64,000 nucleotides of DNA. It comes from an uncultured Clostridia bacterium (GTDB taxonomy: Bacteria > Bacillota > Clostridia > Christensenellales > UBA1242). A program made the position numbers and the translations under genes. Below the pieces are notes generated by a model. The model was not told the DNA's origin. It worked only from the letters and a program-made list of their open reading frames with translations, and did no database searches. Positions 28,160 to 64,000 of this stretch are shown one piece after another (within the stretch, counting starts at the first letter, position 1; each line of letters starts with the position of its first letter). The stretch spans positions 28,224 to 92,223 of the forward strand of contig CALWPK010000006.1 in assembly GCA_944383415.1 (NCBI GenBank), given 5' to 3'.

Positions 28160-28360
28160 TAAAAACTGATTGAGGCAATGGTCATTTTAAGTTAGTTAAA
28201 AAGCGCAAGAACAAAGAGCGTGGGCTTTTAACGAATGTTAAATTTTTCAAGAATTTATAGTTTTGCAAAGAAGGCAGAAATAAAATTTGATTAATATAAA
28301 TTTTAACATTATGGTTTATATTTTTTGAATAGAAATGAGATAATATAAGATACTACTTTT

Positions 28361-47112: not shown

Positions 47113-48288
47113 ATGTCCAATTTGCTTAGTATAACATCTGTATTCACTTATATTGGCTATATTGTTTTAGCCATCATTGTTTTGCTATTTATGGTGCTAA
47201 TTCACGAATTAGGGCATTATACCGCAGGTAAAATCTTAAAATTTAAAATCAATGAATTTAGTGTCGGATTTGGTCCTAAATTGATACAAAAAACCAAAAA
47301 AAATGGAGAGAAAATTACCCTAAGAGCACTGCCATTGGGTGGATATTGTGCTTTTGAAGGAGAGGGGGAAGATGGACAAACTAATTCCCAAGCGTTTAAC
47401 AATCAAAAACCTTGGAAACGCCTAATTGTACTGTTTTTCGGTGCCTTTTTCAATTTCTTGAGCGGTATAATATTTTCATTTATTCTTTTAATATCCTCAG
47501 GCTACGATTTGGTAGAAATCAAGAATTTGAACGAAAATTCAATTAATTATAATACCTTTCAGACAGGAGATGTGATTTATGGTATTGATGGTACTGATAT
47601 AGATTTTGTCCACGATGAATATTTCAACAATTTGCTTACTGTGAGTGTGACTGAATATTATTCTAAATATGCTGGTAGCATTGAAGATTTACAAAATGAA
47701 GTTTCATTTTCTGATGATGGAAAAACTTATTATCTTGATACTCAATCAATGATTTTTAATGTAAGGCGTCAGGGCGAAGATATTGAAATCACGGGTTATA
47801 TTAATGTCATTTATAATGACAAAGGTGAGTATGCTGGATGGTCACTTTATAGTACAGAGCAAGCGGATTCGAACGAGTTTGCCATTGGGAATTATAAATA
47901 TTCATTTTGGGAAAGTTTGATTGAGGCAGTTCCTTTCACTTGCAAATGGGCTTGGAAAATCATCGTGATATTCGGTCAATTGATTATTGGTCAACTTTCT
48001 TTGACATCGCTAGGCGGACCAGTCACCACGATAAACACCATCGCCTCGTATACTCAGACTGGAGGTTGGGCATATTTGGCGGTGTTGTTGCCTCTGATCG
48101 CCATAAACTTGGCAGTTTTCAATTTGCTACCAATACCTGCTCTAGACGGATTCCAAATGATATTCGTAATAATAGAATGGATCAGGAAAAAGCCGTTGAA
48201 GCAAACTGTGATTAATACAATCAATAATGTCGGACTAATAGTATTATTGTGTTTTGTGGTATTGGTTGATATACTGCAGTTTGTGTGA
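47113..48288 (+). CDS. rseP: RIP metalloprotease RseP/RasP
   Basis: HELGHY lies in TM1, with a central PDZ-like segment (GDVIYGIDGTDI) and the C-terminal NLLPIPALDG motif. Confidence 0.92.
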   Translation: MSNLLSITSVFTYIGYIVLAIIVLLFMVLIHELGHYTAGKILKFKINEFSVGFGPKLIQKTKKNGEKITLRALPLGGYCAFEGEGEDGQTNSQAFNNQKPWKRLIVLFFGAFFNFLSGIIFSFILLISSGYDLVEIKNLNENSINYNTFQTGDVIYGIDGTDIDFVHDEYFNNLLTVSVTEYYSKYAGSIEDLQNEVSFSDDGKTYYLDTQSMIFNVRRQGEDIEITGYINVIYNDKGEYAGWSLYSTEQADSNEFAIGNYKYSFWESLIEAVPFTCKWAWKIIVIFGQLIIGQLSLTSLGGPVTTINTIASYTQTGGWAYLAVLLPLIAINLAVFNLLPIPALDGFQMIFVIIEWIRKKPLKQTVINTINNVGLIVLLCFVVLVDILQFV

Positions 48289-48292
48289 TTTG

Positions 48293-48329
48293 GTCAGGAT
48301 TGTTATAGTTGACAATTCTGACTTTTTTT
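48293..48329 (+). terminator. Strong intrinsic terminator after rseP
   Basis: A 10-bp stem pairs GTCAGGATTG (48293-48302) with CAATTCTGAC (48313-48322), with one G-U pair. T7 follows at 48323-48329. Confidence 0.85.
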
Positions 48330-48337
48330 GATATATT
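48309..48337 (+). promoter_or_regulatory. Sigma-A promoter with extended -10 embedded in the rseP terminator
   Basis: TTGACA (48309-48314), a 17-nt spacer ending in TGa, then TATATT (48332-48337). The next ATG (48345) lies 7 nt downstream. Confidence 0.55.
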
Positions 48338-48344
48338 TACATTT

Positions 48345-49865
48345 ATGAACGATAGACTAGATATTTTAGATAGATTATATGATGGATTAAAATTCAAAAA
48401 CGCAACCTATACAGAAAATAATAATACCTGCGTAATGAATTTTTTGTACAATCCAGATGTTTTCAAGCCAAATGAACAAAATAGAATTGAATTATTAAAC
48501 AAATTCAAAGAGATCATTGGGGATTATGTCAAATTTGATATAAAATTTACAAATTGCCCATTGGATAAACGCACTATAGCGAACTATACATATTCAACTA
48601 TTGTCAATATATTTCCTGCGATTTCTAAAAATTTTACTTATGACGATGTATCGGTAAATATAGAGAATATGAAAGTAAATATCACTTTGCGTTTATCACC
48701 ATCAGCGTATGAATATGCGAAGAGTCTGAATAGAGAGACTTTGATCGCTGAAAAATTGAAAGAAAGTTTTTTTGCTGATTTTTCTGTCCAATTCGAAAGA
48801 AAAGACGATGAGGTGGTCGTAGAAAACCGAATAGAAAGTAATGCTGAATTTATGTCATCAATCAAGGAGGCTGAGGAAAAAACTGTTTATGAATTGTCCA
48901 ATCAGGCGAATATAATAGGAATAAATGATTATAATTTGGCTACAGATTTTACAAAAGTTAAGTCACCAGTTGAAAATGTAGCAATTTGTGGTGAAGTGAA
49001 TTCTGTTCAGCGCAAGACATACAAGCGGAACTATACAAGAAATGGAGAGACGAAAGAAATTGAACGCGCCTTTTATAATTTTACACTGCGAAACGAAAAC
49101 AAATTCTTGTATTGTGTAATTTTCCCAAAACAAGCAGATGAAGCGAAAGGTGATTTGATCGAAGTGGGGATGAAAGTGTGTTGTTTTGGTTCATTTAGGG
49201 AATTTAATGGCAAAATGAATTTTACAGCCAATTCAATCGCTCGATGTGAATTCAAACGAGAAGAAATAAAATCTCAATTTAAACACGTCAATGAAGAATA
49301 TCATACCGTTTTCCCTCAAAAATATGTTGATTATGAACAAGCGGATCTATTTTCAGATGCCGAAAAGACTTTTGATGGCAGTTTCGTAGTGTTTGACTTG
49401 GAGACTACAGGACTTGAATCTACAAAGGATGAAATAATTGAGATTGGTGCGTGTAAAATTTTGCAGGGCAAAATTGTTGAAACGTTCTCTACTTTTGTCA
49501 AACCTAGTAGACATATTCCGAAAGAAATTACAGATCTGACGGGGATTGATGATACTATGGTTGAAAACGCTCCAACAATCAATTACGTATTGCCAGATTT
49601 TTATAAATTTTGCTATGCTTCGACAATGGTGGGGCACAATGTATCATTTGATATTTCATTTATATATTTCATAGCGAAAAAACTATCATATAATTTTGAC
49701 AATCCACTAATGGACACATTGGAGATGGCGAGAGCGAAACTGCCAGGATTGAAGAATTACAAATTGTCTACAGTGGTAGAAAGACTCAATATTGTACTCG
49801 ACAACGCGCACCGCGCCATCAATGACGCCACTGCTACCGCAAAAGTTTTTATAAAATTGTATTAA
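48345..49865 (+). CDS. DEDDh 3'-5' exonuclease (DnaQ/PolC-exo type) fused to a ~330-aa N-terminal region with an OB-fold-like segment. No polymerase or PHP domains are present.
   Basis: Exo motifs are present: FVVFDLETTGL (I), HNVSFDISFI (II) and HRAINDATATAKVF (III). The OB-like pattern is NVAICGEV....FTLRNENKFLYCVIFPK....GMKVCCFGSF. It occupies the polC slot between rseP and rimP. The track start at 48309 is the -35 box inside the terminator. Confidence 0.8.
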   Translation: MNDRLDILDRLYDGLKFKNATYTENNNTCVMNFLYNPDVFKPNEQNRIELLNKFKEIIGDYVKFDIKFTNCPLDKRTIANYTYSTIVNIFPAISKNFTYDDVSVNIENMKVNITLRLSPSAYEYAKSLNRETLIAEKLKESFFADFSVQFERKDDEVVVENRIESNAEFMSSIKEAEEKTVYELSNQANIIGINDYNLATDFTKVKSPVENVAICGEVNSVQRKTYKRNYTRNGETKEIERAFYNFTLRNENKFLYCVIFPKQADEAKGDLIEVGMKVCCFGSFREFNGKMNFTANSIARCEFKREEIKSQFKHVNEEYHTVFPQKYVDYEQADLFSDAEKTFDGSFVVFDLETTGLESTKDEIIEIGACKILQGKIVETFSTFVKPSRHIPKEITDLTGIDDTMVENAPTINYVLPDFYKFCYASTMVGHNVSFDISFIYFIAKKLSYNFDNPLMDTLEMARAKLPGLKNYKLSTVVERLNIVLDNAHRAINDATATAKVFIKLY

Positions 49866-49870
49866 AACTA

Positions 49871-49899
49871 TTGATTATTAGTTTCAAATATGATATACT
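49871..49899 (+). promoter_or_regulatory. Sigma-A promoter with extended -10 for the rimP-nusA-infB operon
   Basis: TTGATT (49871-49876), a 17-nt spacer ending in TGa, then TATACT (49894-49899). The leader contains the hairpin GGAGTGGC-ATT-GCCACTCC (49914-49932). Confidence 0.65.
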
Positions 49900-49955
49900 A
49901 GTGCTGACGACTGAGGAGTGGCATTGCCACTCCTAATTAGTTTTATAGGAGTAAT

Positions 49956-50408
49956 ATGAGAGTATCAGATTTAGTTTTTGAAAGCATTAAGCCACTATTT
50001 CAAGGAGATATTAGATTAGTGGAAGTTGAGTATGTCAAGCGCAATGACGGGATGCATTTGATAGTCTATATAGACAAGGACGGCGGTGTCACGATAGACG
50101 ATTGTGTCAAAGTCAATGATATCATCACTCAATATATGGATGATTTGAATCCTACAAATGATGCGTCATATATGTTGGACGTTTCATCTTATGGTTTGGA
50201 TAGACCGCTCAAATATGATTGGCAATTCAAAAAATATGAAAATAAAAAGGTCAATGTCAAATTATATAGAAAGGTTGATGGTAAGAAAGAATTTGTTGCG
50301 ACCCTTTTAGGTAAAGATGAAAAAGGATTTATGTTCAACCTTAATGATGAAAATTTTACTATAAATACTGCTGATGTAGCATATATTACACCATATATAG
50401 AATTTTAA
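49956..50408 (+). CDS. rimP: Ribosome maturation factor RimP
   Basis: It is 150 aa, lies upstream of nusA, and has the LEVSSYGLDRPLK-type motif (VSSYGLDRPLKYDW). Confidence 0.9.
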   Translation: MRVSDLVFESIKPLFQGDIRLVEVEYVKRNDGMHLIVYIDKDGGVTIDDCVKVNDIITQYMDDLNPTNDASYMLDVSSYGLDRPLKYDWQFKKYENKKVNVKLYRKVDGKKEFVATLLGKDEKGFMFNLNDENFTINTADVAYITPYIEF

Positions 50409-50422
50409 GGAGTAGACAGAAA

Positions 50423-51553
50423 ATGATTAATAAAGATTTTTTTGAAGCATTGAGAGATTTGGAAGCAGAAAAAGGAATAAAACAAGATGTTTTTATTTCA
50501 GCATTGGAGCAAGCGCTGACGGCTGCGTATAAAAAGAATAGTGGAGTAGCACGCAACGCACAGGTGAAATTGATACCCGAGAAGAACACTATTAAGATCT
50601 ATTCATATAGGACAGTGGTAGACAACGTTGAAGATGAAGAAAAAGAAATCAGTCTGGAGGATGCTCACCAAATTAAACATTCATATAAAATTGGCGATTT
50701 GGTTATGCAAGAGGAGAGTACAAAGGAATTCAATCGTATAGCAGTACAGACTGCAAAACAAGTCATCACCCAAAAAATTAAAGAAATTGAGAAACAATCT
50801 GTTTACAAAGATATCGCGGAAAAAGAGGGTAAGTTGATTGTTGCCAATGTCAAACGTATGGATGGTGATAATGTTTATCTTGAGATTGGAGGGACGACAT
50901 TAGAAGGCTTGCTTACAAAACATGATATGCTACCTACTGATCACTTCAAATTGGGAGACAAAGTGAAAGTTTATGTGCGTCATATACGTGATGATTTCAG
51001 AGGAACAGTCGTGCAAGTCACTAGGACACACACAAATTTTGTGAAATTGTTGTTGGAAATGGAAGTTCCGGAACTTACAAATGGAGAAGTAGATATCGTG
51101 GGTATCGTCCGCGAGGCAGGACTGAGGACAAAAATTGCAGTTTCTACTTCGGTGCCTAATCTTGATCCAGTAGGTGCATGTATCGGCAACAGAGGCAGTA
51201 GAATTAATTCAGTGATTAATGAATTGAACGGTGAAAAAATAGATATAATTAATTATAGCGACAATCCTGCAGATTATATCGTATCCGCTTTGAGTCCAGC
51301 GGAAGTCAGTGAAATCACTGTAGATACTGTAGCAGGTGTGGCAAATGTGATTGTCCCTGAAAATAAACTTTCGTTGGCAATTGGTAAGGGCGGGCACAAT
51401 GTTCGACTTGCTGCCAAACTTACAGGCTACAAAATTGATGTTAAACCAGCGATTTCAGAATCTAATGTCCACAATAAATCAAATGATGTAGTTAGCACCA
51501 ATAGCGCAAATATTATTCTTGACGACGATTTCTTCGATGATATTGATGAATAA
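50423..51553 (+). CDS. nusA: Transcription termination/antitermination factor NusA
   Basis: An N-terminal domain, an S1 domain and two KH domains (VGACIGNRGSRINSVINEL and LSLAIGKGGHNVRLAAKLTGYKIDV) are present. Confidence 0.97.
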   Translation: MINKDFFEALRDLEAEKGIKQDVFISALEQALTAAYKKNSGVARNAQVKLIPEKNTIKIYSYRTVVDNVEDEEKEISLEDAHQIKHSYKIGDLVMQEESTKEFNRIAVQTAKQVITQKIKEIEKQSVYKDIAEKEGKLIVANVKRMDGDNVYLEIGGTTLEGLLTKHDMLPTDHFKLGDKVKVYVRHIRDDFRGTVVQVTRTHTNFVKLLLEMEVPELTNGEVDIVGIVREAGLRTKIAVSTSVPNLDPVGACIGNRGSRINSVINELNGEKIDIINYSDNPADYIVSALSPAEVSEITVDTVAGVANVIVPENKLSLAIGKGGHNVRLAAKLTGYKIDVKPAISESNVHNKSNDVVSTNSANIILDDDFFDDIDE

Positions 51554-62127: not shown

Positions 62128-63296
62128 ATGAAAGTGTTTACAGTTTCACAGATAAATAAAATAATAAAAGATCTGATTGACAATGAAGTTATTTTAGAAG
62201 ACATAATGATAACTGGAGAATTGTCGTCTTTTTCTATTACTCGAAATATTGCGTATTTCACCTTGAAGGATAATGACAATCTTTTGAATTGCATACAATT
62301 CAATGCTCGTGCTGAATATAAAATTGGAGATATGGTTCAATGTCGTGGGAATGTTAAATATTATCCTAAAGGTGGGAAATTGACTTTTACGGCTTTATCA
62401 ATAGAGGCTTGTGGGCAGGGGGAACTTTATCAGCAATTTTTGAAAATGAAACAAAAATTGCAAGACGAAGGTTTGTTTGATGAAGATCATAAAATTCCTA
62501 TACCAAAATTTATCAATTCGGTTGGTGTGGTGACATCAAAAACCGGTGCGGTCTTGCAAGATATAAAAAATATTGCATTTAGAAGAAACCCGAACATCGA
62601 TATATATGTATATGATGCACAAGTTCAAGGAAACTTTGCTGTTCAGCAAGTAATAGAAGGTATATCATACTTTGACAATTTATCAGATGTTGATGTCATA
62701 ATTGTGGCTCGCGGAGGAGGAAGTATAGAAGATCTTATGCCGTTTAATAGTGAAGAATTAGCACGTATCGCATATATTTGCAACAAACCTATAATAAGTG
62801 CAGTTGGACACGAAACCGATTTTTCTATTTTAGATTTTGTTGCAGATCTACGTGCACCAACACCTAGTGCGGCAGCAGAATTGATAACTTACGATAATTT
62901 AGAAATTATTCAGTATATTAAAGATTTACAATCAAATTTGAATTCCATTTTGGAAAACAAAATTATAGATATTGATAGCAATATTAATTATAATATCTTA
63001 AATATAGAAAGGCTAATTAATGAATCAATAAATAGTGAAATGATATATATAAATGACATTATGAATGATATTGAACATTATTTAGATAAAAACATAGATA
63101 ATACCACATATCGTGTAAATATATTATTAAATACACTAGATAAACTAAATCCAATGAAATTATTAAGGTCAGGATATGCTCATATTATGAAAGATAATCA
63201 AGTTATAAATTACAAAAATATAAACGTCGGTGATGTGTTAGATATAAGAACTAGTGGAATGAAATTGAAAGCAAAAGTGACAAATAAGGAGAAATT

Positions 63297-63300
<4 letters not shown>
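62128..63300 (+). CDS. xseA: Exodeoxyribonuclease VII large subunit
   Basis: An N-terminal OB domain (VSQINKIIKDLID...GELSSF), VVTSKTGAVLQD and ARGGGSIEDL motifs are present. Confidence 0.95.

Positions 63301-64000
<700 letters not shown>

Follow-up and report, generated by a model that had tools for sequence, protein, structure and literature searches.

PolC is usually regarded as the essential replicase that marks the low-G+C Gram-positive bacteria, and in the epsilon subunit (DnaQ) of Escherichia coli the sliding-clamp motif comes after the nuclease domain. In Bacillus subtilis, DnaE recruits PolC, whose exonuclease corrects the errors of DnaE in trans, and synthesis by DnaE is stimulated by a PolC that is polymerase-dead but exonuclease-proficient (PMC5627055). 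Timinskas et al. 2014 reported that some Clostridia have DnaE1 alone, that the DnaE1 of Firmicutes has a conserved putative epsilon-binding surface, and that in Bacteroidetes DnaE1 bears a fused N-terminal exonuclease (PMC3919608). PolC and the DnaQ-type proofreaders are known kinds of protein; what is new at the locus described here is that the front end of PolC has been retained as a stand-alone protein. The locus lies in a window of 64,000 nucleotides (the whole stretch of DNA that was analysed, positions 28,224 to 92,223 of contig CALWPK010000006.1) from an uncultured bacterium of the clostridial order Christensenellales, where a gene for a protein of 506 residues, called here the short gene, stands in the slot of polC. 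We found no description of a short PolC-derived protein in the literature. Timinskas et al. 2014 dropped fragments without the polymerase active site (PMC3919608), which is why a PolC front end is not described there, and in a survey of bacterial polymerases from 2026 truncated sequences were taken out before the trees were built.

Judged by homology, the short gene encodes an N-terminal domain (NTD) of PolC type, an OB fold of PolC type, a PHP-domain remnant some 20 residues long and, last, an entire DEDDh exonuclease, laid out as follows.

48345 to 49865, plus strand: coding sequence of the PolC-derived short protein (506 aa), ATG at 48345, stop codon TAA at 49863-49865 included
48345 to 48878, plus strand: NTD, residues 1-178, homologous to the PolC NTD (hhalign, AF2)
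48882 to 49265, plus strand: OB fold, residues ~180-307, homologous to the PolC OB domain (Pfam OB, hhalign, match to 3f2b)
49266 to 49379, plus strand: linker, residues 308-345, a remnant of the N-terminal half of PHP with the metal motifs deleted (profile alignment)
49338 to 49352, plus strand: QADLF, residues 332-336, candidate beta-clamp-binding pentapeptide (family logo Q-x-[NDS]-[LIFM]-[FL])
49380 to 49862, plus strand: DEDDh 3'-5' exonuclease domain, residues 346-506 (RNase_T, match to 2p1j)

Compared with PolC, the short protein occupies the same slot upstream of rimP-nusA, its NTD, OB fold and DEDDh domain are homologous and in the same order, and its exonuclease is most similar to those of PolC. 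It differs in being without both halves of the PHP domain (save for the remnant, which holds no metal ligands), the palm, thumb and fingers, the HhH module and the C-terminal clamp motif, and in a QxxLF that is new and internal, and it is incapable of polymerising DNA. The likeness to E. coli epsilon, which for the short protein is proposed only, would consist in a free-standing DEDDh exonuclease, a clamp motif adjoining the nuclease and a DnaE-type partner. The two are of independent origin, however, and epsilon has neither NTD nor OB fold but does carry, at its C-terminus, a peptide for binding the PHP domain of alpha, whereas the short protein stops at the nuclease. As far as the sequence tells, it is the natural equivalent of the exonuclease-proficient, polymerase-less PolC of B. 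subtilis (PMC5627055), although that construct keeps the whole PolC scaffold beside DnaE3, while here the scaffold is deleted and the partner would be DnaE1. The survey of Timinskas et al. 2014 shows that evolution has rearranged the exonuclease-polymerase link repeatedly (PMC3919608); the DnaE1 of Bacteroidetes is a fusion, and the case described here is a fission.

The preliminary description of this DNA had seen an open reading frame of 506 residues between rseP and rimP, and the frame is present as claimed, from the ATG at 48345 to the TAA ending at 49865, with a clean stop 90 nt 5' of rimP (the measured gap is 90 nt exactly). The DEDDh motifs that it had picked out are all in place (FVVFDLETTGL at residues 347-357, HNVSFDISF at 431-439 and HRAINDATATAKVF at 489-502), and its statement that no PHP domain or polymerase core is encoded agrees with Pfam, which finds neither a PHP nor a Pol III alpha domain and places RNase_T on residues 348-502 (E 1.2e-39), besides an OB fold at 212-298 that scores weakly (E 2.7e-5, slightly below the gathering score). 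The polymerase core (PF07733, fingers), the HhH module and the C-terminal clamp motif are absent by Pfam and NCBIfam. The protein ends at residue 506, directly past the exonuclease, so that the second PHP half is not present, and with nothing beyond the nuclease there is no segment of the epsilon type for binding the PHP domain of alpha. On the NCBIfam PolC model the short protein scores 190 bits against a cut-off of 873, the match being confined to model positions 417-584, i.e. the exonuclease, and a second PolC model gives 164 bits against 1043; the DnaQ/epsilon-type cut-offs, in contrast, are exceeded (PF00929, 137 vs 24 bits; TIGR00573, 115 vs 71.5 bits). By sequence, the closest solved relatives are the exonuclease domains of PolC (Thermotoga maritima 2p1j, E 1e-37; 9qpc, E 5e-26). 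The catalytic residues D351, E353, D436, H489 and D494 are invariant in 140 of 140 diverse family members, and in the 96%-complete assembly this exonuclease is the sole RNase_T/DEDDh domain.

The relationship extends to the regions ahead of the exonuclease. A profile alignment of the family (140 diverse members, mostly 24-40% identical to the query) with the full-length PolCs of the order is collinear, residues 13-504 falling on PolC 27-584. Because the exonuclease dominates the score of the full alignment, an exonuclease-free comparison was made with a profile of 26 PolC N-termini, in which residues 1-310 aligned with PolC 24-329 (hhalign, 99.6%, E 5e-24). The NTD alone aligned as well (residues 10-158 with PolC 24-172; 97.5%, E 6e-12), as did each of its two small alpha/beta (KH-like) subdomains taken singly, both collinear with PolC (NI, residues ~10-97, E 4e-8; NII, residues ~98-175, E 2e-6), and the OB fold alone aligned with the PolC OB domain (98.8%, E 7e-17), while the cross-domain controls in hhalign, NTD against OB and OB against NTD, gave no match. 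The OB-like segment and the N-terminal region of about 200 residues, which the preliminary description had read as standing in the order of the PolC front, are thus homologous to it. A hidden Markov model (HMM) of the NTD and OB fold without the exonuclease matched the N-termini of PolC frames of 1400-1470 aa with E down to 2e-20 within the order, and PolC N-termini across the class at E 1e-12 to 1e-17; an HMM of the NTD only matched a full PolC in 2 of about 59 PolC-bearing genomes, both times at the exact N-terminus of the frame.

The NTD is strongly diverged. The Pfam models of the PolC NTD, PF14480 and PF11490, recognise 0 and 1 of 90 family members, respectively (the Pfam OB fold is found in 81 of the 90), and with only six PolCs the profile-profile score of the NTD was modest (E 1e-5), becoming convincing with 26 PolC N-termini. 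Pairwise BLAST of residues 1-336 against six PolCs gave nothing significant; weak collinear matches to PolC were obtained by BLAST only from less diverged short forms of other families. The OB region has as its best sequence match in the PDB the OB domain of Geobacillus kaustophilus PolC (3f2b), and its residues G216, F260 and G282 are invariant or nearly so. The AlphaFold (AF2) model of the short protein has a mean pLDDT of 92.7 (about 90 in the NTD), and its best match in the PDB is full-length Enterococcus faecium PolC, 9qpc (E 4e-20, 380 columns), the other structural matches listed being a second PolC entry, 9qrn (190 columns), and exonuclease structures (~160-205 columns). In 9qpc and 9qrn the PolC NTD is unresolved, leaving no solved PolC NTD for comparison (PMC12592400). 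Folded separately, the NTD gave two small alpha/beta modules weakly like tandem KH and ring-building domains, with matches to generic tandem modules such as PrgH and NusA KH (TM 0.42-0.47 for the PrgH type), in agreement with the two KH-like subdomains predicted in the PolC NTD (PMC3919608). Neighbours in the ESM Atlas point towards PolC NTD families with a score of 0.87, which serves as a lead only.

Between the OB fold and the exonuclease, the full PolCs of the order have an intact N-terminal half of PHP, about 85 residues long, which holds ELHxHT...MD, AITDHGVVQAFPxAY and GxKxxxGxE. The short form has 38 residues in its place, in which a conserved Y319-x-x-V-x-P324-x-x-Y aligns on the 'GVvQAFPDAY' of PolC. 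The HxH and DHG metal motifs fall into the gap of the profile alignment, as expected from the earlier observation that the HxH signature was missing here; the linker by itself is too short and gave no significant profile match. In relatives, moreover, a full-length polC occupies the same slot, immediately upstream of rimP-nusA; in the window, the order is frr, uppS, cdsA, rseP (47113-48288), the short gene, rimP (49956-50408), nusA, ylxR, an L7Ae-like gene and infB. Given the shared locus 5' of rimP-nusA, the collinear profile, the matches of the exonuclease-free HMM and the structural match to 9qpc, we conclude that the short protein descends from PolC.

A short gene in the slot of polC invites, at first sight, the suspicion that the assembly is at fault, that polC is decaying as a pseudogene, or that polC has been split and its polymerase half lies elsewhere, and the genome, 1.09 Mb, is a draft of 16 contigs that is 96% complete. 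We consider this explanation very improbable. Public sequencing runs of chicken and other gut samples, at least 20 of them and from no fewer than 10 studies, contain the exact DNA of the locus. Contigs assembled independently in three other studies each run unbroken from the end of rseP through the short gene and rimP, differing by 11-12 substitutions and without any indel over 47900-50500, which disposes of a misassembly or assembly truncation. The 90-nt gap before rimP has no room for remnants. Within the genus the protein is kept at 65-92% identity, and the ratio of nonsynonymous to synonymous substitution (dN/dS) is 0.059 in the NTD, 0.052 in the OB fold, 0.050 in the linker and 0.048 in the exonuclease, values that are approximate at a dS of ~1.3-1.4, though uniform; a pseudogene is rejected on this purifying selection in all four regions (dN/dS ~0.05). 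Length and architecture also agree across all 24 genus genomes sampled and across about 127 genomes that represent 18 families of the order. An alternative genetic code was likewise rejected, the lone 'stop inside' being the gene's own terminal TAA read through. Metatranscriptome runs from chicken gut contain 81-85% of the sampled words of the gene, carried-over DNA being possible; this word sharing suggests that the gene is expressed.

The rest of the genome holds no polymerase half. In a search of the whole draft, no PolC reaches the family cut-off, and there is exactly one gene of Pol III alpha type, a dnaE on contig C14 encoding 1209 aa (L006:4204-7830, minus strand). Based on its domain order (PHP, alpha, fingers, HhH, C-terminal OB) and its score on model NF005298 (1407 bits, cut-off 1260), this sole C-family polymerase is classed as a canonical DnaE1 rather than as the missing half of PolC. 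A split polC is rejected on the same grounds, the other gene being complete, with its own PHP and C-terminal OB, and so is a polC relocated elsewhere. Of the two possibilities that the preliminary description had offered, the stand-alone PolC-front-end exonuclease, as distinct from a truncated polC frame, holds with respect to homology, genome search, assembly and distribution; the other, a remnant retained after polC moved, does not, the polymerase part of polC being absent from the genome and the short protein being under strong purifying selection throughout. As the only C-family polymerase in the genome, DnaE1 must be the replicase. DnaN, DnaX, a probable HolB, PolA and MutS are also encoded. 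The dnaE gene lies directly downstream of whiA and of a gene for a separate PHP-domain protein of 280 aa (L006:7830-8717 and 8724-9563, minus strand).

The short architecture is common to a whole lineage, as a survey of its phylogenetic distribution revealed. All 24 genomes sampled in the genus are without PolC and have the short form and a DnaE of ~1210 aa. From the order, 251 genomes at least 85% complete were sampled: PolC passes the cut-off in 122, fragments of PolC occur in another two, and the others, about 127 from 18 families, have the short form and no PolC, with frames mostly of ~490-600 aa (a few shorter or cut at contig ends). Full-length PolC and the short form occur together in none of the 251, and the division between them follows the families. 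The PolC-less genomes are the smaller ones (0.8-2.3 Mb), and the short gene is kept in every PolC-less family sampled, down to genomes of 0.8-0.9 Mb. A feature so constant in both architecture and locus, shared by 24 of 24 genus genomes and by each PolC-less family of the order, far exceeds what chance would give. Among 399 genomes of the class, strong matches to the short form are restricted to this order. The exonuclease-free profile found 844 cluster representatives at 50% identity, 276 of them with E <= 1e-30, so that the family comprises at least 276 clusters as a lower bound; among the best 150 profile matches, nearly all are 500-545 aa long. Trees of DnaE, of NusA as an independent neighbour and of the NTD-OB-exonuclease module each split the two states by one fully supported branch. 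The most economical reading is a single ancient truncation, which, given unrooted trees and a small sample, we hold short of proof.

Where full PolCs bear their clamp motif, the short form has lost the C-terminus: a strict motif (QISLF or QLSLF) stands at the extreme C-terminus of 3 of 6 full PolCs. In the short form a QxxLF stands instead ten residues ahead of the nuclease, with Q in 129 of 140 family members and F or L at position 5 in 128 of 140. No sequence of the form Qxx[L/I/M/F/V][F/L/W/Y] was found within 110 residues upstream of the exonuclease in any of the six full PolCs. The published clamp-binding consensus is QL[S/D]LF, positions 1, 4 and 5 weighing most (PMC3919608), and the DnaE of the same genome has a clamp motif, QMDLF, that is similar to QADLF. 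QADLF is thus likely to be a docking motif for the sliding clamp, newly gained in the short form.

We propose, with a probability of roughly 55%, that the short protein is a clamp-tethered proofreader that works in trans on DnaE1, a natural counterpart of the polymerase-dead PolC of B. subtilis. In this proposal, PolC lost most of PHP and the whole of the polymerase core, the HhH module and the C-terminal clamp motif at the base of a large clade of the order, with the NTD, OB fold and DEDDh exonuclease retained in place of polC. The newly evolved QxxLF would then dock the short protein onto the beta clamp beside DnaE1, the OB fold, and perhaps the NTD too, would anchor it at the primer-template or another part of the replisome, and the exonuclease would act in trans to excise wrongly incorporated 3' nucleotides. 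That the protein is an active nuclease, binds the clamp, touches DnaE1 and contributes to fidelity is all inferred here; the proposal is favoured because of the precedent in B. subtilis and the conserved epsilon-binding surface of the Firmicute DnaE1. For the wider scenario, that the PolC/DnaE1 replisome was rebuilt at the base of the clade, with the polymerase discarded, DnaE1 left as sole replicase and the proofreader surviving as a free-standing, clamp-tethered, epsilon-like subunit, we would give even odds.

Several points weigh against a proofreader in trans. DnaE1 keeps all nine metal ligands of its PHP domain, in PolC-less and PolC-bearing relatives alike, and may proofread for itself, in which case a trans proofreader would be redundant or serve another process. 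The short protein ends right after the exonuclease, without a counterpart of the alpha-binding peptide of E. coli epsilon; the neighbourhood is inherited from polC and so is uninformative on present function; and the dN/dS values, as noted, are approximate. AlphaFold models the linker with the QxxLF as ordered (block means 78-95, the block of the motif being the lowest at 78), so that conservation of the motif could be structural in origin, and one family carries a weaker QMSAF at the site. Finally, the PolC NTD has no defined function and is unresolved in the PolC structures (PMC12592400).

The intact PHP site of DnaE1, which could proofread, is what keeps open the chief alternative, in which the short protein would serve as a clamp-tethered 3'-5' DNA exonuclease in repair or the processing of DNA ends (mismatch-repair excision, trimming of gaps or Okazaki ends, recombination) rather than as the replicative proofreader of DnaE1. 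An OB fold with a DEDDh nuclease is a common layout of single-strand DNA exonucleases, many repair factors use clamp motifs of the QxxLF type (PMC13220808), and MutS is encoded. However, the exonuclease is most similar to the proofreading domains of PolC, the protein descends directly from a proofreader which, in B. subtilis, works on DnaE in trans (PMC5627055), and it has been retained in all PolC-less families, the smallest genomes included, while other genes were shed; we therefore regard a role in repair as possible but rather unlikely. A mainly architectural role strikes us as more doubtful still; here the NTD and OB fold would preserve a replisome contact formerly made by PolC (e.g. to the clamp loader, SSB or the primosome), with the nuclease of lesser weight. 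The constraint on these domains, which matches that on the nuclease (0.052-0.059 vs 0.048), and the recruitment of PolC by DnaX in B. subtilis (PMC13220808) would fit it, but the five catalytic residues are invariant in 140 members, which is unexpected if catalysis is dispensable, and the PolC NTD has no defined contact.

If the short protein indeed proofreads for DnaE1, the clade would present a natural fission of polymerase and proofreader that mirrors alpha-epsilon of E. coli with an independent origin. DnaE itself differs between the two kinds of genome: at residues ~478-494 (palm/thumb) it has a variable charged insertion of 12-19 residues in 7 of 8 sampled PolC-less genomes and 0 of 10 PolC-bearing relatives, and seven alignment columns discriminate the two groups, differences that are together suggestive at most. 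By the domain limits of E. coli alpha, the insertion would lie in the thumb, beside the site of epsilon in the E. coli complex, a placement that is speculative.

About one in two of the genomes sampled from the order belongs to a clade of gut Clostridia that has no PolC polymerase and shows what was kept when PolC was lost, namely a proofreader with NTD and OB fold. The clade offers a direct route to the question of what the PolC NTD does, as well as routes to replication by clostridial DnaE1, including the use of an external proofreader despite an intact PHP site, and to how separate proofreading subunits like epsilon arise. PolC is the target of a new class of antibiotic, ibezapolstat (PMC12592400, PMC11963600), and since the clade has no PolC polymerase it should be naturally insensitive to PolC inhibitors. 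The database names of the family members vary ('PolC-type DNA polymerase III', '3'-5' exoribonuclease', 'hypothetical protein'), and owing to this inconsistency automated pipelines could wrongly score PolC-less genomes as polC-bearing.

The preliminary description had also supposed, from the order rseP-proS-polC, that proS had moved to a place behind xseB. That supposition falls away, for in this order of bacteria the gene that intervenes between rseP and polC is ispG. In other families of the order, ispG (GcpE) stands between rseP and polC or the short gene (L016:7546-8601). GcpE/ispG has no match anywhere in the 96%-complete genome of the window and none is detectable in the genus, which hints at a loss of the methylerythritol phosphate (MEP) isoprenoid pathway there. 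The proS that overlaps xseB, after xseA and xseB (window 62128-64000), encodes a family-I prolyl-tRNA synthetase of the archaeal/eukaryote type (TIGR00408, 594 bits; L075:90-1532) and is not the bacterial type of the Bacillus rseP-proS-polC cluster.

Candidate control elements lie on either side of the short gene.

48292 to 48323, plus strand: terminator-like hairpin of rseP, whose loop and 3' arm hold the -35 box of the short gene (terminator scan, 14-pair stem then T-run)
48309 to 48337, plus strand: promoter of the short gene, TTGACA, 17 nt, TG-n-TATATT (extended -10), 11/12 consensus matches
49914 to 49934, plus strand: G+C-rich hairpin with T-rich tail between the short gene and rimP (terminator scan, 9 pairs, 6 of them G-C)

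The segment 48292-48347 is a compact terminator-promoter module in which the T-run of the terminator serves as the spacer of the promoter, and the arrangement of a hairpin enclosing the -35 box is also visible at the loci of the genus. A longer start proposed by the ORF finder, TTG at 48309, was rejected, this TTG being the -35 box. With 7 nt from the end of the promoter to the ATG, and no Shine-Dalgarno sequence, the mRNA is probably leaderless. At the genus loci the promoter is present in 31 of 31, with the TG in 30, and the start codon lies 6-8 nt past the -10 in 25 of the 31; six species have a longer gap of 12-34 nt, some of them with an AAAGGA Shine-Dalgarno sequence. On the other side of the gene, 49871-49934 holds a promoter-like site (TTGATT, 17 nt, TG-TATACT) followed by the hairpin, directly upstream of the ribosome-binding site of rimP, and the hairpin at 49914-49934 may terminate transcription of the short gene or serve as a leader or attenuator of the rimP-nusA-infB operon.

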